Counted from the stretch's first letter, positions 1,890 through 22,986 are shown. The stretch is DNA of 64,000 nt from a bacterium (GCA_031441465.1 JANOEP010000046.1:69359-133358), one strand, 5' to 3'. Numbers and translations: made by a program. Notes: generated by a model from the sequence alone, not told the origin.

Positions 1890-1912
<23 letters not shown>
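1..1912 (-). CDS. ftsK: DNA translocase FtsK/SpoIIIE; only the 5' part of the gene is in the window (protein C-terminus lies beyond the left edge)
   Basis: Minus-strand translation gives N-terminal TM helices ([16 protein letters not shown]...), a Walker A motif (GSTGSGKS) and the FtsK motor motifs VDELADLM and [13 protein letters not shown] before running off position 1. The ORF is absent from the track because it has no in-window stop. The track's 71..1933 + ORF is its antisense. The GTG start near 1912 is approximate and overlaps the accC stop. Confidence 0.8.
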
Positions 1913-3275
<1,363 letters not shown>

Positions 3276-3387
3276 CCGCGTCTCTCCTGTCGTGGCTCGG
3301 TACGGGAACGGCGGCGGCGGCGGCCGCTGCCGCCGGACGATTGTCCGGCCGGCGCCGGAAAATGGCAAGCCTGGAAGCGGGACGGGA

Positions 3388-3418
3388 GCGGCGCGCGCCC
3401 CCCGGGGACGCGCGCCGC
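3388..3418 (-). promoter_or_regulatory. GC-rich stem-loop in the 156-nt accB-accC intercistronic spacer (possible attenuator or processing/stability element)
   Basis: Perfect inverted repeat GCGGCGCGCG...CGCGCGCCGC with an inner CCCC/GGGG pair (about a 14-bp stem). It sits directly after the accB stop and is followed by a pyrimidine-rich tract without a clean U-run. Confidence 0.35.
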
Positions 3419-3432
3419 GGCTGGACGACGGT

Positions 3433-3897
3433 TCAGGCGGGATCCACGAGGAACAGGATCGCCTCGGCTTCCACCGGCGTGGCGTTCTCGACCAGGATCT
3501 CTTTGATGACCCCGCCGAATTCGGCCTCGATCTCGTTCATGACCTTCATGGCTTCGATGATGCACAAGGTCTGGCCCGGCTTGATGGTGTCACCCGTGTT
3601 GACGAAGTTCGGCACGTCCGGCGCGGGACCCCGGTACAGCGTGCCGACGATGGGCGAGCGGATCTCGCGCCACTTCGCCCGTTCGGGGTTGGCCGCGGGA
3701 GCGGCGGGCGCCGCCGTCGCGGAGGCGGCGACCGGCGCGGCCGCCGCCGGGGGCAACGTGGCGGCGTAGGCCAGGTGGGCCGACGGCGCGGCGTGCTTCT
3801 GGATGCGGATGGTGGTGTCCTTGTCGATCACTTCGAGTTCGTCGATGCGGCTGTCCTCGACCAGCTTGACAAGCTCGCGCACCTTGCTGAGATCCAT
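3433..3897 (-). CDS. accB: Biotin carboxyl carrier protein of acetyl-CoA carboxylase
   Basis: The C-terminus carries the biotinyl-lysine motif [12 protein letters not shown], preceded by an Ala/Pro-rich linker. A GGAAGGGGAGA Shine-Dalgarno sequence precedes the ATG. Confidence 0.93.
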
Positions 3898-3921
3898 GGT
3901 CTCCCCTTCCGGCCGGAGGCG

Positions 3922-4479
3922 TCAGACGCGCCCCAGGTACTTGCCCGTGCGGGTGTCGATCTTGAGGACCTCGCCCTCCTCGATGAACAGCGGCACCTGG
4001 ACGACGAGCCCCGTCTCCAGGGTCGCCGGCTTGGAGGCGCCCTGGGCGGTGTCGCCACGCAGACCGGGATCGGTCTGGGCCACCTTCAGCTCGACGGTGT
4101 TGGGCGCCTCGACGGTCACCGGCACGCCGTCGCGCAGGAGCATGTTGACCGTCTCGCTCTCCTTGACGTACTTGGCCACATCGCCCAGCGTGTCCCGGGG
4201 CAGCGAGATCTGCTCGTAGGTCTCGAGGTTCATGAAGGTCAGAAAATCGCCGTCCACGTAGAGGAACTGGAAGTCGCGACGCTCGAGCCGGACCTCCTCG
4301 AACTTCTCCCCGGAACGGAACGTGTCCTCGACGACCTTCCCGGTGGAAACGTTCTTCAGCTTCGTGCGCACGAAGGCCGAGCCCTTGCCCGGCTTGACGT
4401 GCTGGAAATCGACGATGGCCCAGAGACTGTTCTTGTAGTTCAGGACCATGCCGTTGCGAAAATCGCTCGTGTCAGCCAA
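3922..4479 (-). CDS. efp: Elongation factor P
   Basis: The translation ...NGMVLNYKNSLWAIVDFQHVKPGKGSAFVRTKLKN... aligns with EF-P, including the modified-Lys loop KPGKG. I moved the start to an in-frame TTG 5 nt after a GGAGAGG Shine-Dalgarno sequence; the track ORF begins 28 codons upstream with no homology. Confidence 0.9.
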   Translation of the reverse strand: MADTSDFRNGMVLNYKNSLWAIVDFQHVKPGKGSAFVRTKLKNVSTGKVVEDTFRSGEKFEEVRLERRDFQFLYVDGDFLTFMNLETYEQISLPRDTLGDVAKYVKESETVNMLLRDGVPVTVEAPNTVELKVAQTDPGLRGDTAQGASKPATLETGLVVQVPLFIEEGEVLKIDTRTGKYLGRV

Positions 4480-4563
4480 CTCGGCCTCTCCTGTGCGAGT
4501 GACGCCCTGCCGGGCAGCGTGAAAATGCCCACTATTGATAACATCTGTTCCGCGAGATGGCAA

Positions 4564-5016
4564 TCAGGCGTTGCCGTCTCCCAGCAGCCCCTTCACGCCC
4601 CGCAGGGCAAGGCGGTAGCTGTCGACGCCGAAACCGCAGATCGAAGCCCTGACGACGTCCCGCAGCAGGTTCTGCCGGCGGAACGGCTCGCGGGCGTCGG
4701 GATTGGAAAGGTGGACTTCGACCACGGGCGTCGCCACGCAGAGCAGCGCGTCGCGCACCGCCACCGAGGTGTGGGTGTAGGCGGCGGCGTTGACCACCAG
4801 CGCCGCGGCCTCGTTCCCCCAGTGATGGATCAGGGTCACGAGTTCGCCCTCGACCTCGGTCTGGTGGCAGACGACGCGCAGCCCCAGCGCGGCACCTTCG
4901 GCCACACAGACGGCGTCGAGCTGCGCCAAGGTGAGCGCGGGGTAATGCTCGGCCTCGCGACGGCCGAGCTGGCTCAGGTTCGGCCCGTTCAGGACCGCGA
5001 CCAGGGGTGCGGTCAC
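4564..5016 (-). CDS. aroQ: 3-dehydroquinate dehydratase, type II
   Basis: VAVLNGPNLSQLGRREAEHYP...HLSNPDAREPFR matches type II DHQase. Its GTG start overlaps the upstream stop by 4 nt (GTGA). Confidence 0.9.
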   Translation of the reverse strand: MTAPLVAVLNGPNLSQLGRREAEHYPALTLAQLDAVCVAEGAALGLRVVCHQTEVEGELVTLIHHWGNEAAALVVNAAAYTHTSVAVRDALLCVATPVVEVHLSNPDAREPFRRQNLLRDVVRASICGFGVDSYRLALRGVKGLLGDGNA

Positions 5017-5855
5017 GCCGGGCCGCCCTGCTGCCGGTCGATCCAGGCTTCGAAGCGGGCGCGGTTGTGGTCGGCCGGCGGTGAGCCGGCGACGGGAGCC
5101 GCCGGTTCCGGCGCCGCGGCGCCGGCGGGGACGCCCCCTGCCGCTCCCGGCGCACAGGGCGTCGCGTCCGCCGTCGCGTCGACCGCTTCCAGGCTGGCGA
5201 TTTCACGGGCCACGTCGGCGCGCTCCGGGTGCTCGGCCAGCAGCCGGCGCAGGATCGCGAGCGCCTTCTGACGGTGTCCCTGGGCCAGATAGATCTCGGC
5301 CAGGGTCTGGGTCAGGAATCGCGGCGCCGGGCCGATGTCCGCGACGGGTGGGGACGCCGCCACCGCCGGCGCGGTCTCGGCTGGCGGCGCCCACGGCTGA
5401 TCGGCCCCGGCCGCCGGTTCGTCGTCGGTCGCCGCATCGGCCGGGATCATGTCTTCCTGGATCGCAGCTACCGGGAACACTTCCGTCGGGCCACCACCGA
5501 CCGGCACGTCGACGAATGTCGCCGTTGCGGCCGCGATCCCGGCGGGCGCCGCCGGTTCGCGATCCGGCAGGGCCAGCAACTGTGGCGCTTCACGGTGGCC
5601 GGCATCGCGATCGAGCACCGCGCGGGCCAGGTCGCGCGCCTCGGCCGGTCGTCCTTGATCACGGCGGACGCGGGCTAGGACGACCCGGGCCGACAGGGAG
5701 TCGGCGCACCGTTCGAGCCCCTCCTCGAGCAGGGCCGAGGCGGCTTCCAGCCGGCCTTCCGCCCGGTAGAGTTCGGCCAGAGGGATGAAGAACCGGTCGC
5801 GCGGCCGGCGGTCCTGCTGCATCTCGAAGTAGCGGATCATGCGATCGTGGGTCAC
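5013..5855 (-). CDS. Tetratricopeptide-repeat protein
   Basis: TPR-like helical repeats at both ends (LAELYRAEGRLEAASALLEEGLE..., LAEIYLAQGHRQKALAILRRLL) flank an Ala/Pro-rich linker. I chose a GTG start with a GAAGGAAA Shine-Dalgarno sequence; the track ORF starts at a TTG 6 codons upstream. Confidence 0.6.
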   Translation of the reverse strand: MTHDRMIRYFEMQQDRRPRDRFFIPLAELYRAEGRLEAASALLEEGLERCADSLSARVVLARVRRDQGRPAEARDLARAVLDRDAGHREAPQLLALPDREPAAPAGIAAATATFVDVPVGGGPTEVFPVAAIQEDMIPADAATDDEPAAGADQPWAPPAETAPAVAASPPVADIGPAPRFLTQTLAEIYLAQGHRQKALAILRRLLAEHPERADVAREIASLEAVDATADATPCAPGAAGGVPAGAAAPEPAAPVAGSPPADHNRARFEAWIDRQQGGPA

Positions 5856-5939
5856 GCCGTTTCCTTCAACCAACTGGTGATCGTCGCTGCAACGAGCGTG
5901 TCGGTCGCGACCCGCGGCGGGCCCGCTGGCCGACGGTTC

Positions 5940-5968
5940 AGTCTAGGCACTCGCATGGTCCGCCGTCA
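5940..5968 (-). promoter_or_regulatory. Putative sigma70-type promoter of the TPR-aroQ-efp-accBC transcription unit
   Basis: Minus strand reads TTGACG, a 17-nt spacer, then TAGACT, about 70 nt upstream of the TPR gene start. Confidence 0.4.
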
Positions 5969-5987
5969 AGCCGCCTGCGGGAATCGT

Positions 5988-6680
5988 TCACAAGATACCC
6001 AACCAGGGCCCCAACAGTTCCTGGAACCTGCCGACCAGCAGCGCCACGCGCCCCATGACGGCCGAACCGAAGGAGGCGCCGAAGGTGATCATCAGCACCA
6101 GCAGGCCCCAGCGGGCCACCCGCCCGTAGGCGCCCTTCTGTTCGCGCGTGTTGACGAAATAGACCAGGCCGCTGACCGTGCCGGCCAGCACCAGCAACTG
6201 GGCCAGGCTCTCCTGCCAGAGCCAGCGGCCGGCCGCCGTCGGGGCCAGCCCCGCGCCGATGGTCGCCTGGATCTGGTAGAGGAAGTCCGAACGCAGGTAA
6301 CGGACCAGCGAATAGCCGGCGGTGGTGCCGAGGGCGAACGCGGTGGGCCACTTGCCGAGCCAGGACAACCGCGGCCACAACCGCGCCAGCATCAGCAGAC
6401 CCAGCGCCGCGGGGATCAGGGCCACGGGGTCCCAGGCGCCCACCGGCGCCTCGGGGCTGGACCAGCGGCCAGCGGCCGGGAAGAGCTTCAACACGAGGGC
6501 GGGCCACAGGGTCGTCCAGAAGCCCATCACCATCCAGTAGGCCGCCGACACGCCGACGAACACGTGCTCGGCGAACTTGTAGAACGGGTTGTCCCGCCAC
6601 AGGAAGGAGAAGACCATCAGGGTCAGCAGCGCGCCGATCCAGACCTGCAAGTCCCCGCTGAGGTGGATCGCGGCGATCAC
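5988..6680 (-). CDS. Uncharacterised polytopic membrane protein (~230 aa, about 6 predicted TM helices)
   Basis: Hydrophobic translation (VIAAIHLSGDLQVWIGALLTLMVFSFLWRDNPFYKF...LLVLMITFGASFGSAVMGRV). A GTG start with a GGAGGA Shine-Dalgarno sequence overlaps the upstream stop (GTGA). The rest of the 524-aa track ORF is out-of-frame antisense. Confidence 0.65.
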   Translation of the reverse strand: MIAAIHLSGDLQVWIGALLTLMVFSFLWRDNPFYKFAEHVFVGVSAAYWMVMGFWTTLWPALVLKLFPAAGRWSSPEAPVGAWDPVALIPAALGLLMLARLWPRLSWLGKWPTAFALGTTAGYSLVRYLRSDFLYQIQATIGAGLAPTAAGRWLWQESLAQLLVLAGTVSGLVYFVNTREQKGAYGRVARWGLLVLMITFGASFGSAVMGRVALLVGRFQELLGPWLGIL

Positions 6681-7552
6681 GGCGTCCTCCGGCGCGCGAG
6701 GCGGCGCAGCAGCAGACCCGCGTTGCCCAGCAGGATGAAGGCGACGATCACCAGGTGCGCCGCCGACTGGGGGCCCATCCCGCGGGTGGCCTGCTGATTG
6801 GCGGCCACGAACTCGGGATGGCCCCGGGCGAGCGCGCCCTCGTACTCGGCCGCCCCCTTCAAGGCGCTCATCAGGCCGAGGATCTGCAACGGGTAGTAGG
6901 GGAAGAACTGCGGGGCGCCCACGCCGGTACAACCGCCGGCGAGCGGCACGTCCAGCACATCGCCGGCGTAGAGGATCCACTCCTTGAGACCCGGCTGCCC
7001 CGCCGAAAGGCTGACGATCAGGCCGAAGTCGGCCAGGCCGCGCACGCCGCGCAGCGCGGCGATCTGCCGCAGCGGCCGGCCGGCGACGTCCGTGGGGTAG
7101 CGCGCGGTCAGCGAATCGCGCAGGCTGTTGATGAGCATCTCCCCGCCGACCTGGAAGCCGAGCGAGACCCAGTCGCGGCCGGGGGCGGCCTGCGGGAATT
7201 CCCGCGCGATGACGCGCTCCTCCACGCGCGAGATCATGTTGTTGCCCGTGGGGTACAGCGACATGTAGCAGATCGGGTGGCCGGTCAGCAGCGCGTGCTG
7301 GGTCAAGGCGTCGGCCATGGGCTCGAGTTCCGGGGCGGAGCTGGGCGAGTAGTCCAGCGACAACAGGATCGGCGCTCCGGCCGGCAGGTTTTCGATGCGG
7401 TCGTAGATCGGCTGAACGACGGAGGTGGCCCGATCGGGCGTGCTCACGCCGGTGAGCAGCGACACCACGACGACCGCGGCCAGCACCAGGAAGATCCAGC
7501 GCCGGTCCAGGGACTCCAGCCGCGAGGCGAGCCGATCGTACCGGTGGATCAC
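6677..7552 (-). CDS. Uncharacterised bitopic membrane protein (N-terminal and C-terminal TM anchors around a ~200-aa extracytoplasmic domain)
   Basis: MIHRYDRL...RRWIFLVLAAVVVVSLLTG (TM), a soluble domain, then ...AAHLVIVAFILLGNAGLLL (TM). Both ends of the gene are 4-nt GTGA overlaps. Confidence 0.7.
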   Translation of the reverse strand: MIHRYDRLASRLESLDRRWIFLVLAAVVVVSLLTGVSTPDRATSVVQPIYDRIENLPAGAPILLSLDYSPSSAPELEPMADALTQHALLTGHPICYMSLYPTGNNMISRVEERVIAREFPQAAPGRDWVSLGFQVGGEMLINSLRDSLTARYPTDVAGRPLRQIAALRGVRGLADFGLIVSLSAGQPGLKEWILYAGDVLDVPLAGGCTGVGAPQFFPYYPLQILGLMSALKGAAEYEGALARGHPEFVAANQQATRGMGPQSAAHLVIVAFILLGNAGLLLRRLARRRTP

Positions 7553-8274
7553 GACCCGTCACCTCCGGAGCGGGGGTCCTTCTCCAGGCCGGCGATCATG
7601 CGCACCGCCAGGGCGATGACGCCCAGGGCGATCCCGATCATCAGGGCCCGCTGCCCGGCGGTGTTGGGCACGCGCAGGATCCAGAGGGACAGTTCCTCGA
7701 CCCGCAGGAAGGCGACGGGCTCCGGGATCCAGGCCGTCAGGTAGCGCCCGGCGGGGATGCGGCCGAGCAGGACCACCAGGGCCGAGGCCAGCAGCAGGGT
7801 CGACTCGAGGGACCGCGCGCGGAAGGCGCGGTACGAGGCCGACGCGATGTAGAAGGCCAGCAGGCTGTAGAGCGTCGCGTGCAGCGGGCTGAGCACCGCA
7901 TCGAACACCGTGCTCAGCCAGCTGCCGGGCGCGGTGACGTCGCCCTGCAGGCCGGGCGGGCCGCCCAGCTTGGCCATGCCGACCACCAGCACGATCACGA
8001 ACGAGACCAGGGTGACGAGGGAGTAGTAGCGGTCCGGACCGCGGTCCCTGATCTTCACCAGGTGCGTCGCGACGAGGTTCAAGCCGCCGAGCAGGAAAGC
8101 GAAGACCGTCAGGATGCTGAACCAGGTGGCGAACTCCTGGTCGGCGAAAGCCAGCATCCGCTGCACGTAGGGCGCGTTCCCGTCCTCGGGACGGGCGATG
8201 AAAGCCGAGATGATCAGCAGCACCGCCGTGACGGACAGGATGATCTGCGGCACGCGCTGCTTCACGGGGCTCAC
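7549..8274 (-). CDS. Uncharacterised polytopic membrane protein (~241 aa)
   Basis: VSPVKQRVPQIILSVTAVLLIISAFIA... with several TM segments. The GTG start overlaps the upstream stop (GTGA). Confidence 0.65.
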   Translation of the reverse strand: MSPVKQRVPQIILSVTAVLLIISAFIARPEDGNAPYVQRMLAFADQEFATWFSILTVFAFLLGGLNLVATHLVKIRDRGPDRYYSLVTLVSFVIVLVVGMAKLGGPPGLQGDVTAPGSWLSTVFDAVLSPLHATLYSLLAFYIASASYRAFRARSLESTLLLASALVVLLGRIPAGRYLTAWIPEPVAFLRVEELSLWILRVPNTAGQRALMIGIALGVIALAVRMIAGLEKDPRSGGDGS

Positions 8275-9083
8275 CCCGCCCGGAAGACGTTGAGGAAGGC
8301 GTCGCGCAGGAACGTCCAAGGCGCCGCCCCGGTCACGTCCGCCACGGTCACCACCAGGCTGCCCGCGACGAGGCAGACCGCGGCCGCGAGTTTGCAGAGA
8401 TCCTGGCCGCGCAGGCTGCCGAGCCGGGCGGCGTCGCCCTCCAGGGAAGCGGCCGCGGCGAAGAGTTCCTCGCCGAGCAGCACGTGATCGCACGACGCCA
8501 CCAGGAAGGGCAGCTGGACCGCGCTGGCGGTGCCCGCGATCTGGACCGCTCCGACCTGGTGCCCACCTTCGGCCAGCAGCAGCGATTCCGAGGCGAAGAA
8601 GCCCATCAGGACGCAGAGGCCAGGGCGCTCGCGGGCGATGAGCCCGTCCACCCGCGCCACGAAACCGAGGTGGTCGTCCGAGATGTAGGCCACCCAGTCG
8701 TCGCGCCAGAGATCGGCGCGGCCGGCGTCGGCGTAGGCGAGGCGGCAGATCTCACGCGCGTTGTCCATGACCAGGCTGCGGTTGGTCGGGACGAACAGGC
8801 GGCCGCCGGCTTCGGCGACCTTGCGCGCGAGCGGCCGCAGCACGGCCAGCGCCGCGACCGTCTGCATGTTGTCGAGATCCTGGGAGCCGGCGACGAAGTA
8901 GACGGGCCGTCCGGCGGCGACGGCGTCGGCGACGGCGCGGTCGAGGGCGAGCAGAGGCGGCAGGGCGCGCACCGACACCGTGGCGCCGCGGCGGGCCCGC
9001 AGGACCGAGAACCCGATCAGGGCGCACACGAACGCGCCGACCAGGGCGACGTTCCAGGTCCCGGGTGCGAGCCAGCCGCTCAC
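8271..9083 (-). CDS. Uncharacterised protein with an N-terminal TM anchor and a ~230-aa soluble domain
   Basis: VSGWLAPGTWNVALVGAFVCALIGFSVL (TM) followed by a soluble region. The GTG start overlaps the stop of the 97-aa gene (GTGA); the stop overlaps the next start. Confidence 0.6.
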   Translation of the reverse strand: MSGWLAPGTWNVALVGAFVCALIGFSVLRARRGATVSVRALPPLLALDRAVADAVAAGRPVYFVAGSQDLDNMQTVAALAVLRPLARKVAEAGGRLFVPTNRSLVMDNAREICRLAYADAGRADLWRDDWVAYISDDHLGFVARVDGLIARERPGLCVLMGFFASESLLLAEGGHQVGAVQIAGTASAVQLPFLVASCDHVLLGEELFAAAASLEGDAARLGSLRGQDLCKLAAAVCLVAGSLVVTVADVTGAAPWTFLRDAFLNVFRAG

Positions 9084-9373
9084 GGGCCCGTCTCCGGACG
9101 CGGGCCTTCCAGCAGGTCCAGCAGGCGGTCGAAGTGGCAGCGCTGCTCCAGGATGCGCGCCAGGCGCGCCGTACCGGAGCGCGGCACCACGAGATCGCAG
9201 AAGGGACTCGCGACGTGCAGGGCCTGCGAGCCCAGGAACGACAGCGGGCTGGAACTCGCGAGCCACAGCAGGGCCGGCGTCGCCAGGCCCGCGCCGCGCA
9301 CGCGCGCCGCCAGGCCGGCGAGGAACGCGTCGTCGGCGGGGTCGAGGCTCGGCGGGCGGCCGGCGTCGCTCAT
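9080..9373 (-). CDS. Small hypothetical protein (97 aa)
   Basis: No recognisable motif. I call it a gene because both ends are 4-nt overlaps: ATGA with the upstream ACAD stop and GTGA with the downstream start. Confidence 0.5.
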   Translation of the reverse strand: MSDAGRPPSLDPADDAFLAGLAARVRGAGLATPALLWLASSSPLSFLGSQALHVASPFCDLVVPRSGTARLARILEQRCHFDRLLDLLEGPRPETGP

Positions 9374-11031
9374 GTCACCTTCGCCTTCACGTGGGCGGTC
9401 ACCACCACCATGTCGTCCAGCAGCCCCTCGCTACAGGCGAGCGGATCGCTGCACGCGAGCTTGGCCAGGAACTCGCGCGGGGTCTCCCCGTCCGGCGGCA
9501 GAACGGCGACCGCACAACCGGCGGCGCAGGTCGCGGCGCCGTCGCGCACGGCCGCCAGGGCCAGGCGGGCGTTCACCCGGCTCATCACGGCGACGGCCGC
9601 CGCCTCGGCGTACCCCGCCGCGGCCAGCGCGGCCGCGCGGCGGCAGAAGGCGCCGGCCACCTCGCAGGCGGTCATCATGTCGGCCAGACGGAACAGCACC
9701 GACTGGCGGCCGTTCGTCTTGCGGGCGTGCACGAACTGGATCGTCGCGTTGAGGTCGCGGACGGCCGCGGCGGCGAGACCGGCGCCCACCTCGCCGTGGG
9801 AGACGTGGAGCGCGTCGAGGCCGGCGGCTGCTTCCTCGTACCAGGCGCCCCGGGTGCGCACGGTCGACTTCCAGCGGTACAGACCGATGATGCTCTGCTG
9901 GATCTCGCTGGTGCCTTCGTAGATCGTCGTGATGCGAACGTCGCGCTTGATCTTCTCGACCATGTACTCGCGTGCGTAGCCGTAGCCGCCCAGGGCCTGG
10001 ATGGCCGCCTCGGCCGCCCGGTTGCCGGCCTCGGTGCACCAGTACTTGGCGATCGAGCCCTCGACCTGCAGGTCGCGCTCGCCGCCGTCGAGGCGCAGGG
10101 CGATCTCCTCCACGTAGGCGCGGCCGGCGGCCAGCGCGATCCAGTGGGGCGTGATGAGCTTGCTGCTGTAGCCTTCCTTGTCGATCAGAGGCGCGCCGAA
10201 CTGGATGCGTTCGCGGGCGTAGCGCACGGCCCGGTCGAGCGCCGCCTGGCCGGCGCCCAGGCCGAACGCGCCGACCATCACCCGCGTGTAGCCGAACACG
10301 GCGTTGGCCTGTTTCAGCCCCTGGCCCTCCACGCCGCCGATCAAATGGGAGACCGGGACCTCCACGTCCTCCAGCACGACGCCGCTGGTGTCCGAGGCGC
10401 GGATGCCGTGCTTGTCCTCGTGCTTGCCGGCGCTGAGGCCGGGTGTCGCGCGCTCCACGACGAAGAACGAGGGACCATCGGGCGTCTTGGCCAGGATGGT
10501 GTACAGCTCGGCCACGCCGCCGTTGGTGATGAACTGCTTGGTGCCGTTGAGGCGGTACCCGGTGACGGCGCCGGCGGCGTCGGTCAGGCGGTCGGCGCGC
10601 GTCTGCAGCGCGGCCACGTTGCTGCCGGCGGCGGGTTCGGTCACGCCGTAGGCGACGATCAGGCCTTCGGCGGCGATGCGGCCCAGCCAGTGGTCCTTCT
10701 GCTGCGGCGTGCCGCCGACGATGATCGGGTCGGTGCCCAGGCAGATCGCCAGGAAGGCGGTCGCCACGCCCAGGTCGATGGCGGCCATCTCCTCGCTGAC
10801 GCGGCAGATGTCCAGGGCGCCGCCGCCGAGCCCGCCGACGGCCTCGGGCAGGAAGATCAGGTGCAGGCCGACGTTGGGCGAGAGCAGCTCCCTGATGAAG
10901 GCGACGGGGAACTCGTCGCGCGCATCCAGGCCGAGCAGGATGTCGTCGGGCAGGTCCCGTTGCACGACCTGGCGCAGCGTCTGGACGATCATCTCGCGCA
11001 TCTCGGGCGACAGGCCGGCGGTCTGGGTCAT
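9370..11031 (-). CDS. Acyl-CoA dehydrogenase family protein with a ~170-aa Ala-rich C-terminal extension
   Basis: ACAD fold motifs (YGVTEPAAGSN, ITNGGVAELYTILAKT, LGGYGYAREYMVEKIKRDVRITTIYEGTSEIQ), then an atypical extension. An AGGAGTGAATC Shine-Dalgarno sequence precedes the ATG. Confidence 0.85.
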   Translation of the reverse strand: MTQTAGLSPEMREMIVQTLRQVVQRDLPDDILLGLDARDEFPVAFIRELLSPNVGLHLIFLPEAVGGLGGGALDICRVSEEMAAIDLGVATAFLAICLGTDPIIVGGTPQQKDHWLGRIAAEGLIVAYGVTEPAAGSNVAALQTRADRLTDAAGAVTGYRLNGTKQFITNGGVAELYTILAKTPDGPSFFVVERATPGLSAGKHEDKHGIRASDTSGVVLEDVEVPVSHLIGGVEGQGLKQANAVFGYTRVMVGAFGLGAGQAALDRAVRYARERIQFGAPLIDKEGYSSKLITPHWIALAAGRAYVEEIALRLDGGERDLQVEGSIAKYWCTEAGNRAAEAAIQALGGYGYAREYMVEKIKRDVRITTIYEGTSEIQQSIIGLYRWKSTVRTRGAWYEEAAAGLDALHVSHGEVGAGLAAAAVRDLNATIQFVHARKTNGRQSVLFRLADMMTACEVAGAFCRRAAALAAAGYAEAAAVAVMSRVNARLALAAVRDGAATCAAGCAVAVLPPDGETPREFLAKLACSDPLACSEGLLDDMVVVTAHVKAKVT

Positions 11032-11072
11032 GATTCACTCCTGATGAACGGTGGCGGATGGTGGCGACGGTC

Positions 11073-11981
11073 TCAGAGGACCGAACCCTGATCGAAGCGC
11101 AGGCGGCCTTGTGCGAGCAGGACGCCGTGCCCGCCCACGCGGATCGCGCCGCAACGGCCGTCGTGGACCTCGGCCTCGGCGTACAGGCGGCTCGGGCGCC
11201 TCATTTCCAGTCCCTGCTCGCAGACGATGCGGACGTGGGGCTGCGGCGGCACCAGGCGGTGCTTGATCATGTACGCGATCAAGGCGCCCGCGGCGCTGCC
11301 GGTCGCCGCGTCCTCGGGGATGCCGAAGTCCTGGGCGAACATGCGGCAGTGCACGTCGACCCCGGCGCCCTCGGCCTCGCAGGTGAAGACGAAGAGGTCG
11401 CCGAAGCCGAGGTCGCGGGAGATCTCCCGCGCCGCGGCCCGATCGAAGCGGATGGACTGCACGGCCTCGAGCGAACCCATCGGGACGATGTGGATGGGCA
11501 GGCCCGCCGAGACGATCTCGCAGGGCAGGCCCGTGATGGCGATGTCCGTTTCCTCGACGCCCAGCGCCCGGGCCACCTTGCCCCGCTGGTAGTACTGCCC
11601 GATGAACTCCGCGGGCTCGTGGACCAGCGAGTACAGCGTGGCGCCGTCGACTTCCGACAGCACGACGGGGAACTCGCCGGCCTCGGTCCGCCAGTGGAAG
11701 CGGGTCTCGTCGCCCCCCCGTGCGATCCGGCCGCAGGCGTCCAGGCCGCAGGTGGCGCCCAGGATCGAAAGCCCCGACAAGGGGATCTCCCCCTTGGGCG
11801 TGAAGATCCGCAGCCGGGCGCGGTTGACGCCGCCGGGGTCCGGCTCCGCGAACACCGTCTCGCCGGTGCCCATCTCGCGGGCGATGACCTGGAGCAGGGC
11901 GGTCGGCACGCCGGCCGCGTCGGGGAACAGCGTCAGACGGCTGCCGCCGAACGGCACGCGCGTGTACAGGTCCAGGTGCAT
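11073..11981 (-). CDS. PhzF-family (phenazine-biosynthesis-like, DAP-epimerase fold) isomerase
   Basis: MHLDLYTRVPFGGSRLTLFPDA... and a two-domain PhzF-like pattern. An alternative upstream ATG at 12044 sits inside a putative -10 hexamer, so I prefer the shorter ORF. Confidence 0.75.
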   Translation of the reverse strand: MHLDLYTRVPFGGSRLTLFPDAAGVPTALLQVIAREMGTGETVFAEPDPGGVNRARLRIFTPKGEIPLSGLSILGATCGLDACGRIARGGDETRFHWRTEAGEFPVVLSEVDGATLYSLVHEPAEFIGQYYQRGKVARALGVEETDIAITGLPCEIVSAGLPIHIVPMGSLEAVQSIRFDRAAAREISRDLGFGDLFVFTCEAEGAGVDVHCRMFAQDFGIPEDAATGSAAGALIAYMIKHRLVPPQPHVRIVCEQGLEMRRPSRLYAEAEVHDGRCGAIRVGGHGVLLAQGRLRFDQGSVL

Positions 11982-12096
11982 GAATTCGCGTTCGAACAAG
12001 CGGATCCCCGTGGTTGCGTTGGGCTGCGGCAACTCAGCGGGCATCCTAACCGCTCGCCCGCGGCGGTGCAAGCAGGGGATGACGGGCAGGGGTGGC

Positions 12097-12105
12097 GGGG
12101 GGGGG
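12097..12105. repeat. G9/C9 homopolymeric tract in the acpS-PhzF intergenic region
   Basis: Nine consecutive G on the plus strand, lying about 26 nt upstream of a TTGCAC-N17-TAGGAT promoter-like element on the minus strand. Confidence 0.5.
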
Positions 12106-12110
12106 CGCCG

Positions 12111-12479
12111 TCAGTCGAGGACCACGACGGCCATGGCGATCTCGCGCTCGTGGCTGAGGGACAGCAGGACGCGCCCTCCCCCGCGCTCGCGCAGGGCCTC
12201 CGCCGCGCCGCCGTGCAACCGCAGGACCGCAGGACCGCCCTCGCAGTGGACGACCTCGACGTCGCGGTAGGCGATCGGGCCGGCGACTCCGATCGCCTTG
12301 ACGAAGGCCTCCTTCGCCGCCCAACGCGAGGCGAGGGTGGCCGGACCCTGGGCGCCGCGCCGCGCCGCCAGGGCGATCTCGTCGGGCCGGAAGCAGCGCT
12401 GCAGGAAGCGATCGCCGTGACGCTCGACCGCGGTGCGGATGCGCGCGACCTCGACGATGTCGCTGCCGAGCCCGCGCAT
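12111..12479 (-). CDS. acpS: Holo-[acyl-carrier-protein] synthase (4'-phosphopantetheinyl transferase)
   Basis: MRGLGSDIVEVARI...WAAKEAFVKAIG...SLSHEREIAMAVVVLD matches AcpS. Start placed at Met50 of the track ORF after an AAGGGAG Shine-Dalgarno sequence; it overlaps the upstream stop by 1 nt (TGATG). Confidence 0.88.
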   Translation of the reverse strand: MRGLGSDIVEVARIRTAVERHGDRFLQRCFRPDEIALAARRGAQGPATLASRWAAKEAFVKAIGVAGPIAYRDVEVVHCEGGPAVLRLHGGAAEALRERGGGRVLLSLSHEREIAMAVVVLD

Positions 12480-13180
12480 CAGTAGGCTCCCTTGCGCTCG
12501 ATCACGGCGGGGATCGTGCGCGACAGGATCCGCAGGTCGAAGACCGGCCCGCGCCGCCGCACGTACTCGAGATCCAGTTCCATCCAGTCCTCGAAATCCA
12601 AGTGGCTGCGCCCCGACACCTGCCACAGGCAGGTCAGCCCGGGCTTCACCTGGAGCCGCCGCGCCTGGGCGGGCGTGTACGCGGCCACCTCGCTGGGGAT
12701 CTGCGGACGCGGGCCGACCACCGACATCTCGCCGCGCAGCACGTTGTACAGCTGCGGGAACTCGTCGAGGCTGCTGCGCCGCAGGAAACGGCCGACGCCG
12801 GTGATGCGGGGGTCGCGCTCGATCTTGAAGGCGGCGCCGCTGGCCTCGTTCAGGTGGGCGAGGTCGTCCTTGCGGGTCTCGGCGTCCACGACCATCGAGC
12901 GGAACTTGTAGCAGTCGAAGGCGCGCCCCCGCAGGCCGACGCGGCGCTGGCGGAAGAACACCGGGCCCGGGGTGTCGAGCCTGATCAGGATGACGAGCAG
13001 CGGGAAGACCGGCAGCACCAGCAGCAGGCCGACGGCGGCTCCCAGGAGGTCCACGAGGCGCTTGACCGCGGCGCCGGCGGGATTGGCGGTGGGCACGGGC
13101 CCGTGGGGGTCGCGCGCGATGAAGGCGGCGTAGCCGCCGGCGGCGGCGTAGACATCCGCGTCGTCGAGGTGAGGGCTCAC
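12479..13180 (-). CDS. Polyprenyl-phosphate sugar-phosphate transferase (bacterial sugar transferase, WbaP/WcaJ C-terminal-domain type, small form)
   Basis: KRLVDLLGAAVGLLLVLP...RVGLRGRAFDCYKFRSM...DEFPQLYNVLRGEMSVVGPRP is the sugar-transferase signature. GTG start overlaps the upstream stop (GTGA). Confidence 0.85.
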   Translation of the reverse strand: MSPHLDDADVYAAAGGYAAFIARDPHGPVPTANPAGAAVKRLVDLLGAAVGLLLVLPVFPLLVILIRLDTPGPVFFRQRRVGLRGRAFDCYKFRSMVVDAETRKDDLAHLNEASGAAFKIERDPRITGVGRFLRRSSLDEFPQLYNVLRGEMSVVGPRPQIPSEVAAYTPAQARRLQVKPGLTCLWQVSGRSHLDFEDWMELDLEYVRRRGPVFDLRILSRTIPAVIERKGAY

Positions 13181-14754
13181 CGGACGGCCTCCCCGCCCGC
13201 CGCGGGCGCGCGCCGCCAGTGCAGGGCGGTCACGCCGGGGAACTCGCGCACCGCGACCACGTCGCCCAGATCGTCGAGCGCCGCCGGGAAGTGATGGCCC
13301 GGGTCGAGCGTCCCGCTGCGGCACAGGACCAGCCAGGCCTGGTCGGCGTCGCCGATCCGTTCGGACAAGGCGCCGACCACGGCGTCGCGGCCGACGAGCG
13401 CCCCGAGACCCCAGAAGTCGCGCACCTCGCCGCGGCCGTCGTAGTAGAGCCGGAACAGGTCGGTGACCACGGGCACGAGCACCGGGTCGCCCGCGGCGTC
13501 CTGGTTCGCGATCCAGACCGCGGCAGCCCGCACGTCGTCCTTGGCGTAGCGAGGATCGAGGTGGTAACTGCCCGACGACCACAGGGTCAACCCGAGCAGG
13601 GCCAGGCTCGCCACCCTCACCGTCCAGCCGTGCATCACGCTGAGCCCGTGTCCGGCCGCCAGCAGCAGGAAGGGGGCCGCCACCGCCAGGTAGCGGGGCG
13701 TGAAGGTCTTCACGTCGAGCAGGCGCATCGCGATGAGAGCGACGAACGGCACCACGATCCACAGCGCCGTTTCCCGGCGCCGCCGGCTGCGCCACCAGCC
13801 CGTGACCGTCGGGAAAGCGGCCGCGAGCGCGCCTGCGGCCAACAATGGCAGGTAGCGGCGGACGATCTCCAGGCGGTCGGGCCGGTGCAACTCCTCCAGC
13901 GTCGGGCCGAGGCTGAAGCCGTAGAAGAATGTGAACAGGGCGTAGGGGACGGCCAGGGGCGTCAGGCGTTCCTGGCCCTCGGGCAGCAGCCCGCCCCCGC
14001 CTCCCGGCGCCAGGCGTCCGGGATACCAGTAGCCTGTCGCCTGCAGCAGCCAGGGCAGGATGATCAGACCGGTCACCCCGAAGGCGACCGCCCAGCCGCG
14101 CCGGGCCTCGCCGCTTTGCGGGCGGTGCAGCAGGACCACACCCAGGACGTGGGCCACGATCAGCAACAGGGCCGACATGTTGCTCAGCACGGCGAGTCCG
14201 GCGAGCAGGCCGTAGGTCAACCCGCCCCGCGTCGAGGCGCCGTGCCGCTGCATGCGCAGCAGCTGCAGGGTCGCCGCCATGGCGAGCAGGACCATCAGGG
14301 AATAGCCGCGCGCTTCCTGCCCGTACCAGACGTGGAACGGGTTGAGGGCGAGCAGCAGGGCCGCCCAGGCACCGGTCGACCGGTCGCGCCATTCGCTGCC
14401 GAGTTTGTACATCAGCGGGACGGCCAGGATGCCGGCCAGCGCCGCCGGCAGCCGCAATAGCCATTCGGGGGAGGCCGGTTGCCCGGGGCGCCAGCTCAGC
14501 AGCAGGTACAGGGGCCCCTGGATGTTGTCGCGGAACTGCTCCCAGAGCCCGTGGCCGGCGCCGGGATGGAGGTTGTGCCAGGTCTGGTACTCGTCGATCC
14601 AGAGCGGCGAAGCGCCGAGGTGGTAACCGCGCAGGATGGCCGCCGCGGCCGTCACCAGGATCACGAACAGGAGCCTTTCGCTGCGCCGACCGGCGGGATC
14701 GAGCGCGGGCATGGCCCCCAGTCGAAAGTCGGCGTGCTCCCGGCGCGAACTCAT
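13177..14754 (-). CDS. GT39/ArnT-PMT-family membrane glycosyltransferase (aminoarabinose/mannosyltransferase-like)
   Basis: ILRGYHLGASPLWIDEYQTWH..., about 11 TM helices and a periplasmic C-terminal domain. ATG start after a GGAGG Shine-Dalgarno sequence, overlapping the upstream stop (ATGA). Confidence 0.75.
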   Translation of the reverse strand: MSSRREHADFRLGAMPALDPAGRRSERLLFVILVTAAAAILRGYHLGASPLWIDEYQTWHNLHPGAGHGLWEQFRDNIQGPLYLLLSWRPGQPASPEWLLRLPAALAGILAVPLMYKLGSEWRDRSTGAWAALLLALNPFHVWYGQEARGYSLMVLLAMAATLQLLRMQRHGASTRGGLTYGLLAGLAVLSNMSALLLIVAHVLGVVLLHRPQSGEARRGWAVAFGVTGLIILPWLLQATGYWYPGRLAPGGGGGLLPEGQERLTPLAVPYALFTFFYGFSLGPTLEELHRPDRLEIVRRYLPLLAAGALAAAFPTVTGWWRSRRRRETALWIVVPFVALIAMRLLDVKTFTPRYLAVAAPFLLLAAGHGLSVMHGWTVRVASLALLGLTLWSSGSYHLDPRYAKDDVRAAAVWIANQDAAGDPVLVPVVTDLFRLYYDGRGEVRDFWGLGALVGRDAVVGALSERIGDADQAWLVLCRSGTLDPGHHFPAALDDLGDVVAVREFPGVTALHWRRAPAAGGEAVR

Positions 14755-15581
14755 GGCCGGACCTCCGATGACAGGGGACGGCCGAGCCGGAACGATTTCA
14801 AGGAAGCGTCGATGGCGCCGACCTTCACTTTCGTCTTCATGAGCACGGGCAGGCGGTGCTCGTCGTCGCTCAGCCAGATCGTGAGGTCGCCCTCGAACTG
14901 GAAGAGCCCTTCGCCCTGGATGACCGGCTGCACGACGAGGCAGTCGAACGTGCCGGCCGCCACGGTGATCCGCTCGCGTCCCTGGACGTTGACAACGAGG
15001 TCGTAGGTCTTGCGCGAACTGTGCGTGGTCACGAGCGCCGGCTGCCCTGGTTCCAGCGGCAGGGTGCGGACGAAGTAGAACGCCGACAAAATGTCCTGGA
15101 CCCCGGTCGGAACGTCCTCGTCGTGGCCGTCGAGATGGCGGGCCTTCCCCGCCTCCTGTTCGTAACGGATCGCCACGTTCTTGCGATAGTCGCCTTCGCG
15201 CAGCCGCTTGCTGAAGTAGCGCGTCGCGAGTGTCCGCACGTCGATGTGGGTGATGACCTTGTCCCGGACGAGGTAGAACGCCGAGAAGAATCGGTTGGAC
15301 GTGGCCTTGCTCTCCACGGGATAGCACGGGTGGCCGCCGGAATCGATGACCTCCCCGACTTCCAGGGAGGCCTCGCCGGCGTTGACGGGTCCGTAGTCGA
15401 TCGAAAAGACCAACAGCTCGCCCGGCCCGTAGGGAACCGGGTGGATCGCGGCGGCAGTATCCGGTGCGGAGGCGGTCGTTTCCGCGCCAGCGGCCACGGC
15501 GGGGGCGGTCGCCAGGACGGCGAGCGCCGCCGCGGCCAGGGCCGCCGGCAGGGTTCCCGCCCGGCCTCGTCGCAGGTTCAT
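14751..15581 (-). CDS. Secreted DUF3108-like protein
   Basis: Signal peptide (MNLRRGRAGTLPAALAAAALAVLATAPAVAAG), then a GELLVFSIDYGPVNAGEASLEV... beta-rich domain. GGAGG Shine-Dalgarno sequence; ATGA overlap with the upstream stop. Confidence 0.6.
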   Translation of the reverse strand: MNLRRGRAGTLPAALAAAALAVLATAPAVAAGAETTASAPDTAAAIHPVPYGPGELLVFSIDYGPVNAGEASLEVGEVIDSGGHPCYPVESKATSNRFFSAFYLVRDKVITHIDVRTLATRYFSKRLREGDYRKNVAIRYEQEAGKARHLDGHDEDVPTGVQDILSAFYFVRTLPLEPGQPALVTTHSSRKTYDLVVNVQGRERITVAAGTFDCLVVQPVIQGEGLFQFEGDLTIWLSDDEHRLPVLMKTKVKVGAIDASLKSFRLGRPLSSEVRP

Positions 15582-16651
15582 GTGGCCTCCCTCGCTGCGC
15601 CCCGCAGGCGCTCCAGAATGGTATCCAGGGCCTCCAGCACGCGTTCGGCACGCAGACCGGTCATGCAGGGATGACCGGCCACCGGACACTCCAACAAGTC
15701 GCAGGGGGAACATGGTTCCCCGGTTCGCACCATGATATGCAAGGGATGTTCCGGGTTCCAGCCTCGCGGGTCCGTCGGGCCGAACAGGGTGACCGTCGGC
15801 ACGCCCAGACCGGCGGCGATGTGGCGCGGGCCGCAGTCGGTCGCCACCAGGACGTCGAGCCGGCTCAGGAGGCCGGTCAGATCCAGCAGATCCGTGTTCG
15901 GGGCGACCGGCAGACTGGGATCTTCCGCCCGGACGGCCGCCACGAGCGCGCCGTCGCCGGGACCCGGAATCAGCAACACGGCGGCGCCGCGCGCGACGAG
16001 AGCCTGCATCAGTCGCACGGCCTCGGCGGCCGGCCAAGCCTTGACGGGCCACGTCGCACTCAGGGTCAGGCCGATCCGGGGGCGGCCTCCGGTTCCGGGC
16101 CAGCCGATCCCGGGCGCCGCCGCGACCCGGTCCGGCCCAGCTGGTTCCGCGGTGAAATCGCCGGGCCGCCAGGGCTCGGCCTCGGCGCCCAGGGTCCGGA
16201 CGAGATCCAGAAATCCTTCGGCCGCGAACTGCCGCAATCGCCGCCCCTCGAGACGGTCGCGCGGCACCGGCAGGTTGTAGGCCCATCGGCGCCAGCGCAG
16301 TGCGTAGCCGGCCCGCCAGCGGGCGCCGCTCAAGGCGGTCCACAGGGCCGTGCGCGGCGTGCTCAGGACGTCCACCACCAGGTCGTACCGCTGCGCGCGC
16401 AGGTGGGGGATCCAACCCGCCGGCGCGTCCGCACGCTCCGGAGGCCAACCCACCACCCGGATGCGGTCGGCGACTTCGCGCAACAAGGGGACGAAAGGCC
16501 GGTCCACGAGCAGATCGACCTCGGCCTGCGGGCAAGCCGCGGCCAGCGCCCGCACCGCCGGCAGCGTGACCACGACGTCGCCGAGGGCTCGCCGGCGGAT
16601 CACCAGGATCCGGCGCAGCTGCGGCAGCTCGGCGAAGAAGGACCGGTTCAT
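15578..16651 (-). CDS. Glycosyltransferase family 9 (LPS heptosyltransferase)
   Basis: ILVIRRRALGDVVVTLPAVRAL at the N-terminus and ...GPGDGALVAAV...LLSRLDVLVATDCGPRHIAAGLGVPTVTLFGPTDP at the C-terminus are GT9 hallmarks. ATGA overlap. Confidence 0.85.
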   Translation of the reverse strand: MNRSFFAELPQLRRILVIRRRALGDVVVTLPAVRALAAACPQAEVDLLVDRPFVPLLREVADRIRVVGWPPERADAPAGWIPHLRAQRYDLVVDVLSTPRTALWTALSGARWRAGYALRWRRWAYNLPVPRDRLEGRRLRQFAAEGFLDLVRTLGAEAEPWRPGDFTAEPAGPDRVAAAPGIGWPGTGGRPRIGLTLSATWPVKAWPAAEAVRLMQALVARGAAVLLIPGPGDGALVAAVRAEDPSLPVAPNTDLLDLTGLLSRLDVLVATDCGPRHIAAGLGVPTVTLFGPTDPRGWNPEHPLHIMVRTGEPCSPCDLLECPVAGHPCMTGLRAERVLEALDTILERLRGAAREAT

Positions 16652-20551: not shown

Positions 20552-20567
20552 GGCCGGCCGCCGGCGC

Positions 20568-22946: not shown

Positions 22947-22986
22947 GGGCACAGTTCCTTCCGCGTCCGCCTTGCTCCGGCGCCGC

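Follow-up and report, generated by a model that had tools for sequence, protein, structure and literature searches.

Six consecutive genes on the minus strand of this stretch of bacterial DNA follow one another with overlapping start and stop codons, and the locus raises the question whether they act as one unit and in what process. An earlier note had read them as a module for acyl-chain modification or envelope-lipid handling, in which an extended acyl-CoA dehydrogenase (ACAD), a PhzF-family isomerase and a set of membrane proteins would be tied to the nearby acpS and heptose-glycan genes.

The gene chain and its acyl-CoA dehydrogenase

In the window (the whole 64-kb stretch of DNA that was analysed) all six proposed reading frames were recovered, encoding proteins of 553, 97, 270, 241, 291 and 230 aa, and each of the five junctions was confirmed as a 4-nt overlap of start and stop (ATGA, GTGA, GTGA, GTGA and GTGA, in the order from ACAD to g230). 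The PhzF gene ends at position 11073, 41 nt upstream of the ACAD start. The features are as follows:

11073..12044, minus strand: PhzF-family isomerase, upstream of the ACAD and outside the conserved module
9370-11031, minus strand: ACAD, 553 aa, of MCAD/SCAD-like catalytic type by its sequence; a lineage-specific neighbour, not a member of the module
9373..9876, minus strand: C-terminal extension of the ACAD (aa 386-553)
9080-9373, minus strand: g97, 97 aa, predicted small cytoplasmic protein of a family associated with GlmL/MutL-type ATPases
8271-9083, minus strand: g270, 270 aa, DUF6754 protein with a TM helix, a Rossmann-like alpha/beta domain and a second TM helix
8403..8990, minus strand: predicted cytoplasmic alpha/beta domain of g270 (aa ~32-227), with an invariant acidic crevice
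7549-8274, minus strand: g241, 241 aa, polytopic membrane protein with ~6 predicted TM segments, without family assignment
6677-7552, minus strand: g291, 291 aa, anchored at both ends (TM, alpha/beta domain, TM), without Pfam family
6782..7432, minus strand: predicted periplasmic alpha/beta domain of g291 (aa ~41-257)
5988-6680, minus strand: g230, 230 aa, polytopic membrane protein with ~6 predicted TM segments, the most conserved member of the module

The start codons chosen for the chain genes differ from those of the longest open reading frames. They are supported by the lengths of homologues (270 aa for g270, ~226-241 for g241, 289-291 for g291 and ~224-233 for g230), by GGAG-like motifs 5-12 nt before four of the five internal starts, and by a Logan contig that encodes an identical 270-aa protein; genes predicted there independently give proteins of 553, 97, 270, 241 and 291 aa, joined by 4-nt overlaps as in the window, and a PhzF protein of 323 aa. 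All six genes are under purifying selection when compared with 88-97%-identical relatives (dN/dS 0.08-0.43, with 0.08-0.10 for g230 and 0.28-0.43 for g97).

Judged from its sequence, the first gene of the chain encodes an ordinary ACAD of the FAD type, that is, a standard soluble MCAD-like enzyme. Family membership is clear from three ACAD domains (N-terminal, middle and C-terminal; 60.7, 75.2 and 141.2 bits) above the Pfam gathering thresholds and from the catalytic Glu of the YEG motif, readable within IYEGTSE; the best PDB matches are MCAD structures (1e-67 over residues 30-383). The 170-aa tail had been called atypical. When it was searched alone against the PDB, four of five weak matches fell in ACAD C-terminal helical domains (residues ~232-338, E 0.07-0.9), and the Pfam model Acyl-CoA_dh_1 reports two stretches on the 553-aa protein; given this weak similarity to a second C-terminal helical domain, the tail is probably not atypical. 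ACADs of 577-656 aa are present in the PDB (2z1q, 3owa, VLCAD, ACAD9), and the extension is kept in the 552-aa orthologue of the related locus L006. The PhzF-family isomerase is likewise assigned (Pfam PhzC-PhzF, PF02567, 1.2e-41 and 143.5 bits against a cut-off of 27; TIGR00654, 148.7 bits against 76.2).

Limits of the conserved module and its partner genes

For the comparison of gene order 92 related loci were used, with 39 loci having enough flank for neighbour counts and 66 testable cases of gene order; as these loci are the best 80 of at least 574 metagenome matches and a few others, the sample leans to closer relatives. We define a four-gene module as a DUF6754 gene (g270 in the window) followed on the same strand, in this order and with tight junctions, by genes of the g241, g291 and g230 families. 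The order was found in 64 of the 66 testable cases, with tight or overlapping junctions across the loci, and the window has it with its 4-nt overlaps. Since the arrangement of the membrane genes recurs in other genomes, the chain is more than chance, and the tight coupling and membrane location emphasised in the earlier note prove to be those of a conserved membrane module.

This module occurs alone or in tandem amid unrelated housekeeping contexts (double or triple copies at 10 of the 39 loci). It is widespread in lineages annotated as Zixibacteria, Krumholzibacteria, Latescibacterota, Fermentibacterales, Coatesbacteria and Lernaellota, and near-universal in the sampled loci from lineages annotated as the first three of these and related candidate phyla, which have few or no cultured members.

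The ACAD and PhzF genes follow another pattern. They stand beside the module at five of the 39 loci, all from the clade of the window, to which the co-location of PhzF is confined, and neither gene was found at any of the 34 module loci outside it. A link to acyl-lipid metabolism would draw support from the 4-nt overlap of the ACAD stop with the g97 start, from the three GT9 genes, Bac_transf and PMT_2 upstream in the window, and from the synteny of PMT_2, Bac_transf, ACPS, PhzF, ACAD, module, TPR and EFP that the window has in common with L006, whose module proteins are ~50-60% identical to those of the window. However, in L006 a pair of genes that includes an ATPase separates the ACAD from DUF6754, and no overlap joins the ACAD to the gene that follows it. 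When 119 flanking genes were classified by Pfam, no neighbour proved recurrent and no family matched more than four of them; FA_synthesis, ACP_syn_III, Thiolase_N and hexapeptide-repeat transferases match two each. The ACAD lies downstream of PhzF and acpS because of lineage-specific synteny. The chain thus appears, from these comparisons, to consist of two separate things, an ordinary ACAD and a self-contained module of five genes (g97, DUF6754, g241, g291 and g230), which is conserved in thousands of uncultured bacteria, independently of the ACAD, and has no assigned function. That the genes are conserved together holds for this five-gene unit and fails for the unit of six.

The place of g97 in the module is indicated by its homologues. 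It shares 49% identity with residues 8-91 of a 711-aa MutL-like protein of L006 (2e-17), matches free-standing ORFs of 122-147 aa at L010, L011 and L012 (1e-7 to 5e-8), and has no TM segment; its family was found at 18 of the 39 loci. In L006 it is fused to the ATPase, at L006, L011, L012, L060, L063 and others the gene order is g97, MutL-like, p375 and DUF6754, and where the ATPase is missing (L010 and the window) g97 directly precedes DUF6754. Hence g97 belongs to a family that precedes, or is fused to, a GlmL/MutL-type ATPase of the system. This ATPase matches PF13941 end to end (3e-107). Its companion p375 (375 aa) has recurrent sub-threshold matches to Biotin_lipoyl (21 of 34 members), RnfC_N (18 of 34), NQRA_N (8 of 34) and KOW (7 of 34) and would thus be a protein with a barrel-sandwich-hybrid (BSH) domain and a KOW motif. 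Both occur jointly at 20 of the 39 loci and are, as far as gene neighbourhoods tell, the usual conserved partners of the module. GlmL/MutL proteins, the accessory family of methylaspartate mutase within the ASKHA superfamily, are thought to be reactivating chaperones.

When the extended system is defined as the module with an adjacent PF13941 ATPase and the 375-aa BSH/KOW protein, the window does not contain it: tblastn of both partners against the 64 kb finds solely the g97 region. About half of the loci, including this one, have no ATPase nearby, so that ATP coupling may not be intrinsic to the module or the pair may be encoded elsewhere. Purifying selection on the chain persists though the pair is missing from the window locus.

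Folds and predicted topology of the membrane proteins

No assignable motif had been seen in the four membrane proteins. This stands for Walker and transporter signatures, and does not stand for g270, which is a member of the DUF6754 family (PF20539; 1.5e-78, 263.9 bits against a gathering threshold of 27, profile positions 5-249 of 257) with 583 homologues of the same domain in a protein database clustered at 90% identity. For the other three, nothing rose above noise in Pfam, NCBIfam, PADLOC and PDB (g241), no match was found in Pfam, NCBIfam and PDB (g291), and no family was matched in Pfam, NCBIfam and further searches (g230). The g291 family nevertheless comprises 5070 clusters of 50% identity at E<=1e-3, and g241 proteins consistently follow DUF6754 and carry an invariant motif (L-A-F-x3-S-A-x2-R-A-F-R) plus G207/R209. 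Invariant residues of g230 include D30, N31, Y34, E38, Q136, R211 and R218.

AF2 models of g270 (pLDDT 91) and g291 (pLDDT 95) both show a Rossmann-like domain between two TM helices, so that two proteins of the set, and not one as first described, are anchored at both ends; g241 and g230 are the two polytopic proteins of ~6 predicted TM segments. From the distribution of charges and from signal peptides, the soluble domain would be cytoplasmic in DUF6754 and periplasmic in g291. This assignment draws on long homologues that carry a signal peptide and an FN3-like ectodomain; g241 is predicted to be N-in/C-in (alignment-averaged hydropathy and K/R distribution). The N-terminal ectodomains of DUF6754 proteins are highly variable, from none to ~660 aa, and FN3- or Ig-like, while insertions in g291 concentrate at a hot spot of its periplasmic domain. 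In both soluble domains invariant polar and acidic residues lie at the C-terminal edge of the beta-sheets.

Possible functions and related systems

Searches of Pfam, NCBIfam, PADLOC, PDB sequences, folds and the literature returned no function for the module, in agreement with the earlier statement that it matches no described system, and a full-text literature search yielded no paper mentioning DUF6754. Profile searches in Pfam, NCBIfam, PADLOC and PDB placed the membrane proteins in no ABC-2, Walker or transporter family and in no known complex. Specifically, an ABC or ABC-2 transporter is not indicated among the six proteins, where Pfam and NCBIfam recognise no ABC_tran, Walker A or ABC-2 domain; a single ABC2_membrane_5 match (E 0.024, in one of 37 g241 homologues) is noise. 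PADLOC recognised no family of known anti-phage defence among the six window proteins or in the ATPase and p375 of L006.

Most likely the four membrane proteins form one inner-membrane complex, and the natural g291-g230 fusion proteins (P0369, P0373, P0381) count for physical association. Our best guess, offered with low confidence, is a trans-membrane translocation complex. The g241 and g230 proteins, which may yet share the fold of a known transporter, would make up a two-subunit polytopic core, with the ligand-binding Rossmann-like domain of DUF6754 clamped to its cytoplasmic face and a second such domain, that of g291, on the periplasmic face. The acidic crevice of DUF6754 might hold a phosphate- or metal-bearing ligand, which would pass through the core to the periplasmic domain or travel in reverse. 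The ATPase pair could then energise or service one to three tandem membrane modules in common; it would have been lost from the locus in the clade of the window while g97 was kept. As a whole, this explanation, a translocation device with an ordinary ACAD next to it, seems plausible to us though somewhat short of probable. The wider proposal remains tentative and may well prove wrong: that the module, the GlmL-type ASKHA ATPase, the BSH/KOW protein and a g97 adaptor represent a previously unrecognised class of membrane machine, an inner-membrane translocation complex serviced by an Hsp70/actin-fold ATPase, with Rossmann-like ligand-binding domains on either side, acting in housekeeping across several uncultured phyla and often in substrate-specific tandem copies.

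The invariant residues of DUF6754 could also be those of an active site, in a membrane-bound enzyme complex whose reactivating or maturation chaperone would be the GlmL-type ATPase with p375. An acidic DxD / S-T / R / E pocket suggests phosphotransferase, phosphatase or glycosyl-transfer activity, and a chaperone role, as has been proposed for GlmL, EutA and DdrA, would make the pair dispensable or encodable elsewhere. However, no HAD, glycosyltransferase or SIS Pfam match was found for the domain even at E<0.1, the DxD stands at another distance from strand 1 than does canonical HAD motif I (in HAD phosphatases and P-type ATPase P-domains, DxDx[TV] at the end of strand 1, with S/T, K/R and acidic residues as motifs II to IV), and the ATPase falls below the NCBIfam GlmL cut-offs. 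An equally conserved periplasmic domain and two polytopic subunits would furthermore be left unexplained, and we consider an enzyme complex unlikely.

The variable ectodomains of DUF6754, the inserts in g291, the paralogous modules in tandem and the KTN/RCK regulatory domains among the fold-search matches would all suit a trans-membrane sensor that passes signals from outside on to the Rossmann-like domain in the cytoplasm and to the ATPase. Yet no kinase, GGDEF, HAMP, PAS or DNA-binding output domain was found in the module or recurrently adjoining it, and the DUF6754 protein of the window is strongly conserved without any ectodomain, which makes a signal relay improbable. A joint role of ACAD, PhzF and the membrane set with acpS and the heptose-glycan genes is very improbable, as comparative genomics largely refutes it and the ACAD resembles a standard soluble enzyme. 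Scarcely credible is an Rnf/Nqr-like or PntAB-like ion-translocating redox complex, with p375 as its NqrA/RnfC-N-like subunit and NAD(P) bound by the Rossmann-like domains, given that no Rnf-Nqr, FMN_bind, Fe-S, PNTB or NAD-binding match was found in Pfam or NCBIfam, that conserved Cys clusters are missing from the polytopic subunits, that a periplasmic domain is an implausible place for NAD(P) binding, and that p375, which alone has the sub-threshold RnfC_N/NQRA_N matches, is missing from the window.

If the module is a functional complex, as we infer, it would be among the larger uncharacterised membrane systems, without even a family name; g291, for which Pfam has no model, alone accounts for over 5000 clusters at 50% identity. 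Coupling of such a complex to a GlmL/MutL-type ASKHA ATPase would, if true, be a new mode of ATP coupling and the first cellular role for the large non-mutase branch of the GlmL family. The comparison also corrects a tempting annotation by association, from ACAD, acpS and heptose genes to lipid handling. With the true unit, its partner genes and a predicted topology defined, the system is now directly testable.

Among known systems, VLCAD, ACAD9 and long bacterial ACADs (PDB 2z1q, 3owa, 3b96, 8phf) resemble the ACAD of the window in having a canonical core, a ~170-aa C-terminal extension that is putatively helical, and a similar total length, although its tail matches the ACAD C-terminal domain weakly and its core is nearer to MCAD and SCAD than to VLCAD. 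The g270 protein is a full-length, high-scoring member of PF20539, a catalogue entry without function in which the fixed retinue of three genes and the ATPase partners are unrecorded. With ABC-2 permeases and their auxiliaries the module shares several small polytopic or bitopic membrane proteins in a tightly overlapping operon, but not the ABC_tran ATPase or Walker motif. Na+-NQR and Rnf have a common architecture with it (~6-TM subunits, bitopic subunits with soluble domains, and a soluble subunit whose N-terminal domain is a barrel-sandwich hybrid, in which p375 resembles NqrA/RnfC-N); cofactor motifs were not found, and the likeness is architectural only. The three-layer alpha/beta folds of PntB dIII, sirtuins, MTH0777 and HAD/GT-B type proteins are also among the closest known systems. 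To the GlmL/MutL family (PF13941, NF040745, TIGR01319) the system is related through its ATPase and through g97, which is homologous to the N-terminal extension of the ATPase or to its upstream partner. However, the module ATPases reach 190-228 bits with the NCBIfam GlmL equivalog model, whose cut-off is 475, and 127-175 with glmL_fam, whose cut-off is 204. They carry an additional ~150 aa at the C-terminus and are associated with membrane proteins, not with a B12 mutase.

The gene chain and the limits of the module

Six minus-strand genes form the chain, the five that lie 3' of the ACAD gene being named here by the length of their products:

9370-11031, minus strand: ACAD, 553 aa
9080-9373, minus strand: g97, 97 aa
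8271-9083, minus strand: g270, 270 aa
7549-8274, minus strand: g241, 241 aa
6677-7552, minus strand: g291, 291 aa
5988-6680, minus strand: g230, 230 aa

The earlier note had described six ORFs with five start-stop overlaps and a PhzF gene 41 nt upstream of ACAD. Both descriptions were borne out: the coordinates are as claimed, the junctions read ATGA, GTGA, GTGA, GTGA and GTGA in order, the window coordinates place the end of PhzF 41 nt from the ACAD start, and an independent assembly agrees for five of the six genes. Since the G+C content of the window is about 71%, spurious long ORFs are abundant, and the overlapping starts differ from the longest-ORF starts. We accepted the overlapping starts because they fit homologue lengths, because the independent assembly (Logan SRR20217196), in which an identical 270-aa protein is present, gives gene calls of 553, 97, 270, 241 and 291 aa with identical overlaps, and because GGAG-like motifs precede all but one of the five internal starts. 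dN/dS was 0.08-0.43 across all chain genes in comparisons with 88-97%-identical relatives. A terminator and promoter scan of the window yielded nothing informative: the number of sigma-70-like matches within 4400-16000 is near chance expectation, and the sole match (5940-5969, minus strand, 9/12) sits just 3' of the g230 stop, 5' of a TPR gene. An Rfam scan of window 1-64000 gave no family at gathering score.

Iterated profiles of every gene were searched against six-frame ORFs of 92 related loci, drawn from five species-representative genomes, seven homologue look-ups and a metagenome scan (at least 574 relatives found, 80 used). Where 2.6 kb or more of sequence is available downstream of a DUF6754 (g270-family) gene, the g241, g291 and g230 families follow it in that order in 64 of 66 cases. 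Junctions within this four-gene block, the module, are tight or overlapping across loci, and 10 of 39 loci carry it two or three times in tandem (e.g. L008, L023, L030, L068). ACAD and PhzF, on the other hand, adjoin the module solely in the window's clade (L001-L004, L006, L013, L014); among the 39 loci that offer 4.5 kb or more of upstream sequence, they were found in 5, all of this clade, and in none of the 34 others. When 119 flanking genes were classified with Pfam, no family emerged as a recurrent neighbour, the maximum being PPDK (4/119) in four triple-module loci (L030, L035, L050, L068), three of which have divergently oriented genes of the ATPase pair (a GlmL/MutL-type ATPase and p375, a 375-aa BSH/KOW protein) in common. 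Because of the fixed order, the clade-limited ACAD and PhzF, the lack of a recurrent neighbour and the tight junctions, the six-gene cassette splits into two, and we are confident that the membrane genes together make up a strongly conserved unit, independent of ACAD, which is a lineage-specific neighbour. The earlier note had asked whether ACAD, PhzF and the membrane set co-occur; the membrane genes do, and ACAD and PhzF do not go with them outside the clade. As proposed, the module is coupled, lies in the membrane and is uncharacterised, but a lipid role linked to ACAD, acpS and heptose genes is not supported.

In two unrelated loci the module has an OPT-family oligopeptide transporter gene close by: in L012 it follows directly downstream, and in L007 it lies on the opposite strand about 2 kb upstream, separated from the module by two genes. 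No recurrence of this gene was seen among the 119 flanking genes. The window comes from an uncultured, high-G+C bacterium whose nearest relatives are MAGs, including two from the Lyne and Ejby isolates, with inconsistent labels ('bacterium', Latescibacterota, Gemmatimonas, Fibrobacter); Krumholzibacteria are among the named homologues. The close relatives L001 and L002 are found in activated sludge.

The ACAD carries all three ACAD domains in Pfam, is closest to MCAD and SCAD among PDB sequences (residues 30-383, 1e-67) and retains the YEG catalytic motif. Its 170-aa tail had been regarded as atypical. Searched alone, however, the tail matches almost exclusively ACAD C-terminal helical domains, weakly (E 0.07-0.9), Pfam reports a second Acyl-CoA_dh_1 stretch, and the layout of core and tail is that of the long ACADs 2z1q, 3owa, VLCAD and ACAD9, so that the tail is probably ordinary. 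PhzF is a standard family member (Pfam, NCBIfam). Upstream of the chain (12111-22997, minus strand) are genes for acpS, Bac_transf, a PMT_2-type glycosyltransferase, DUF3108, GT9 proteins and Lon protease; the GT9 heptosyltransferase-like genes number three, one with a fused HAD phosphatase domain (17796-19589). Housekeeping genes lie on its 3' side (1890-5873, minus strand):

5013-5873, minus strand: TPR protein
4564-5016, minus strand: type II dehydroquinase
3922-4563, minus strand: EF-P
1890-3368, minus strand: biotin carboxylase accC

The order TPR-EFP-accC is common to the window and L006. ACAD in L002 (~7883-9711) and g291 in L004 (~11532-12402) are each broken into several tblastn segments by apparent frameshifts, which probably reflect errors in long-read assembly and not pseudogenes.

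Families, folds and topology of the membrane proteins

With all window proteins searched against Pfam, NCBIfam and PADLOC, the only families found here were ACAD, PhzF and DUF6754; g97, g241, g291 and g230 had no match. The proposal that none of the four membrane proteins has an assignable motif is accordingly upheld for g241, g291 and g230 and falls for g270, a full-length member of Pfam DUF6754 (PF20539; 1.5e-78). Scattered Pfam matches of individual members of the g241 and g230 alignments (TMD0_ABC 9/37, Acyl_transf_3 7/37, DUF5693 1/37) were rejected as hydrophobic noise. Profile searches of PDB sequences with the family alignments (A1-A6, A8) gave nothing below E 0.03, and hhalign detected no relationship between g241 and g230 or between DUF6754 and g291. 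The profile searches recommended earlier thus led to no described system in Pfam, NCBIfam, PADLOC or PDB sequences, and literature searches on DUF6754, PF13941, GlmL-like and TIGR01319 yielded nothing relevant. The module of the window is an ordinary representative of what is a very large family; the relatives of g291 alone form 5070 clusters at 50% identity, the best 150 matches listed all being clear family members. The module family as a whole is without described function, name or mechanism, and of its five to seven components one is in databases, as a DUF only. Judged by this absence of matches, which is not the demonstration of a new mechanism, the module would belong to no known kind of system.

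Rossmann-like domains with conserved crevices, together with variable ectodomains and inserts, characterise the module. Confident AF2 models from alignments of 66-67 sequences (pLDDT 91 for g270, 95 for g291) give both proteins a six-stranded three-layer alpha/beta domain, preceded by one TM helix and followed by a second at the C-terminus; TM anchors around a soluble domain had been noticed before, in one protein instead of two. The two polytopic proteins of about six TM helices seen earlier are indeed g241 and g230, each predicted to have that number. Invariant polar residues lie just after beta-strands in both alpha/beta domains, the position of the usual ligand crevice in Rossmann-like folds; DUF6754 has an acidic set (D69, D71, D136, E166, D199, E205, E206) together with R102, S103, R151 and C198. 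As both termini of g291 are Arg-rich, its domain should be periplasmic, and that of DUF6754 should be cytoplasmic, given an R/K cluster after TM1 and, in longer homologues, a signal peptide and FN3-like ectodomain ahead of TM1. Natural g291-g230 fusions (P0369, P0373, P0381; single polypeptides of 579-598 aa, with an additional TM helix in the linker) provide Rosetta-stone evidence which argues for a physical association of the two proteins.

Several families vary in length. Insertions into the periplasmic domain of g291 cluster in a hot spot, profile position ~116-120, and can be up to ~550 aa long (P0424, P0427, P0477, P0478, P0361), and P0361 shows an apparent internal duplication. Variants of g241 reach 519-620 aa (L063:10862-12706, L033:2932-4791, L078:4323-5879), the extensions in L063 and L033 having no Pfam match. 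Large N-terminal ectodomains occur in the DUF6754 proteins L012:5458-8289 (943 aa, with an Ig_RIMBP2-like match) and L010:6436-7941 (501 aa); the window's protein has none.

Partner genes

Four membrane proteins in fixed order and a small protein are frequently linked to an ASKHA ATPase and a BSH/KOW protein, the genes of these last two adjoining the module in 20 of 39 loci. The ATPase (~610 aa) matches PF13941 (MutL/GlmL, ASKHA fold) end to end (3e-107) and scores under the NCBIfam GlmL cut-offs, and hence is a distinct GlmL-related branch. Its partner p375, with a mean column identity of 61%, has repeated sub-threshold matches to Biotin_lipoyl, RnfC_N, NQRA_N and KOW models; one source mislabels it 'NusG'. 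It was not regarded as a biotin or lipoyl carrier, the hairpin-position Lys being a majority residue only, outside the invariant and ≥90% columns. Three tandem module copies are present in L008, L022, L023, L030, L035, L050, L068 and L074, and in triplicated loci the ATPase and p375 genes, where in range, occur once per locus, sometimes in divergent orientation.

Neither gene was found in the 64-kb window. L006, syntenic with it (PMT_2, Bac_transf, ACPS, PhzF, ACAD, ..., TPR, EFP), carries ATPase and p375 inserted exactly at the position of g97; over residues 8-91, its 711-aa ATPase shares 49% identity with g97. Further matches of g97 are free-standing ORFs of 122-147 aa, which lie 5' of the ATPase in L011 and L012 and, in L010, where there is no ATPase, directly 5' of DUF6754. 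Hence g97 is a genuine fifth component of the module; the window's clade, which reaches relatives with a 64%-identical DUF6754 protein (L014), has lost the ATPase pair from the locus and kept g97. The possibility that g97 is left over from a deleted ATPase gene and now decaying was rejected in view of free-standing homologues in distant genomes and a dN/dS of 0.28-0.43.

A possible translocation system and its alternatives

The four proteins would form one inner-membrane complex, with g241 and g230 as polytopic core and a ligand-binding domain clamped to each membrane face. The function we judge most likely is to translocate a phosphate- or metal-bearing ligand between the cytoplasmic DUF6754 and the periplasmic g291 domains. 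As specified, with a shared ATPase pair, this mechanism is put forward tentatively, as a real possibility. A membrane enzyme complex served by a reactivase of GlmL type, against which the scores of the ATPase under the GlmL cut-offs speak, seems unlikely to us. Still less probable is a sensor or relay complex, a role for which variable ectodomains would be suited and which the ectodomain-free protein of the window does not favour. The earlier model of an ACAD-coupled lipid module fits the chained genes of the window and fails in the loci outside its clade, and is improbable; a redox pump resembling Rnf, Nqr or Pnt, in which p375, with its sub-threshold RnfC_N and NQRA_N matches, would be a subunit, is the most doubtful of all. 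In the translocation reading, one to three paralogous membrane modules would be served by a single ATPase pair, much as in other transport systems several specificity components share an energising module.
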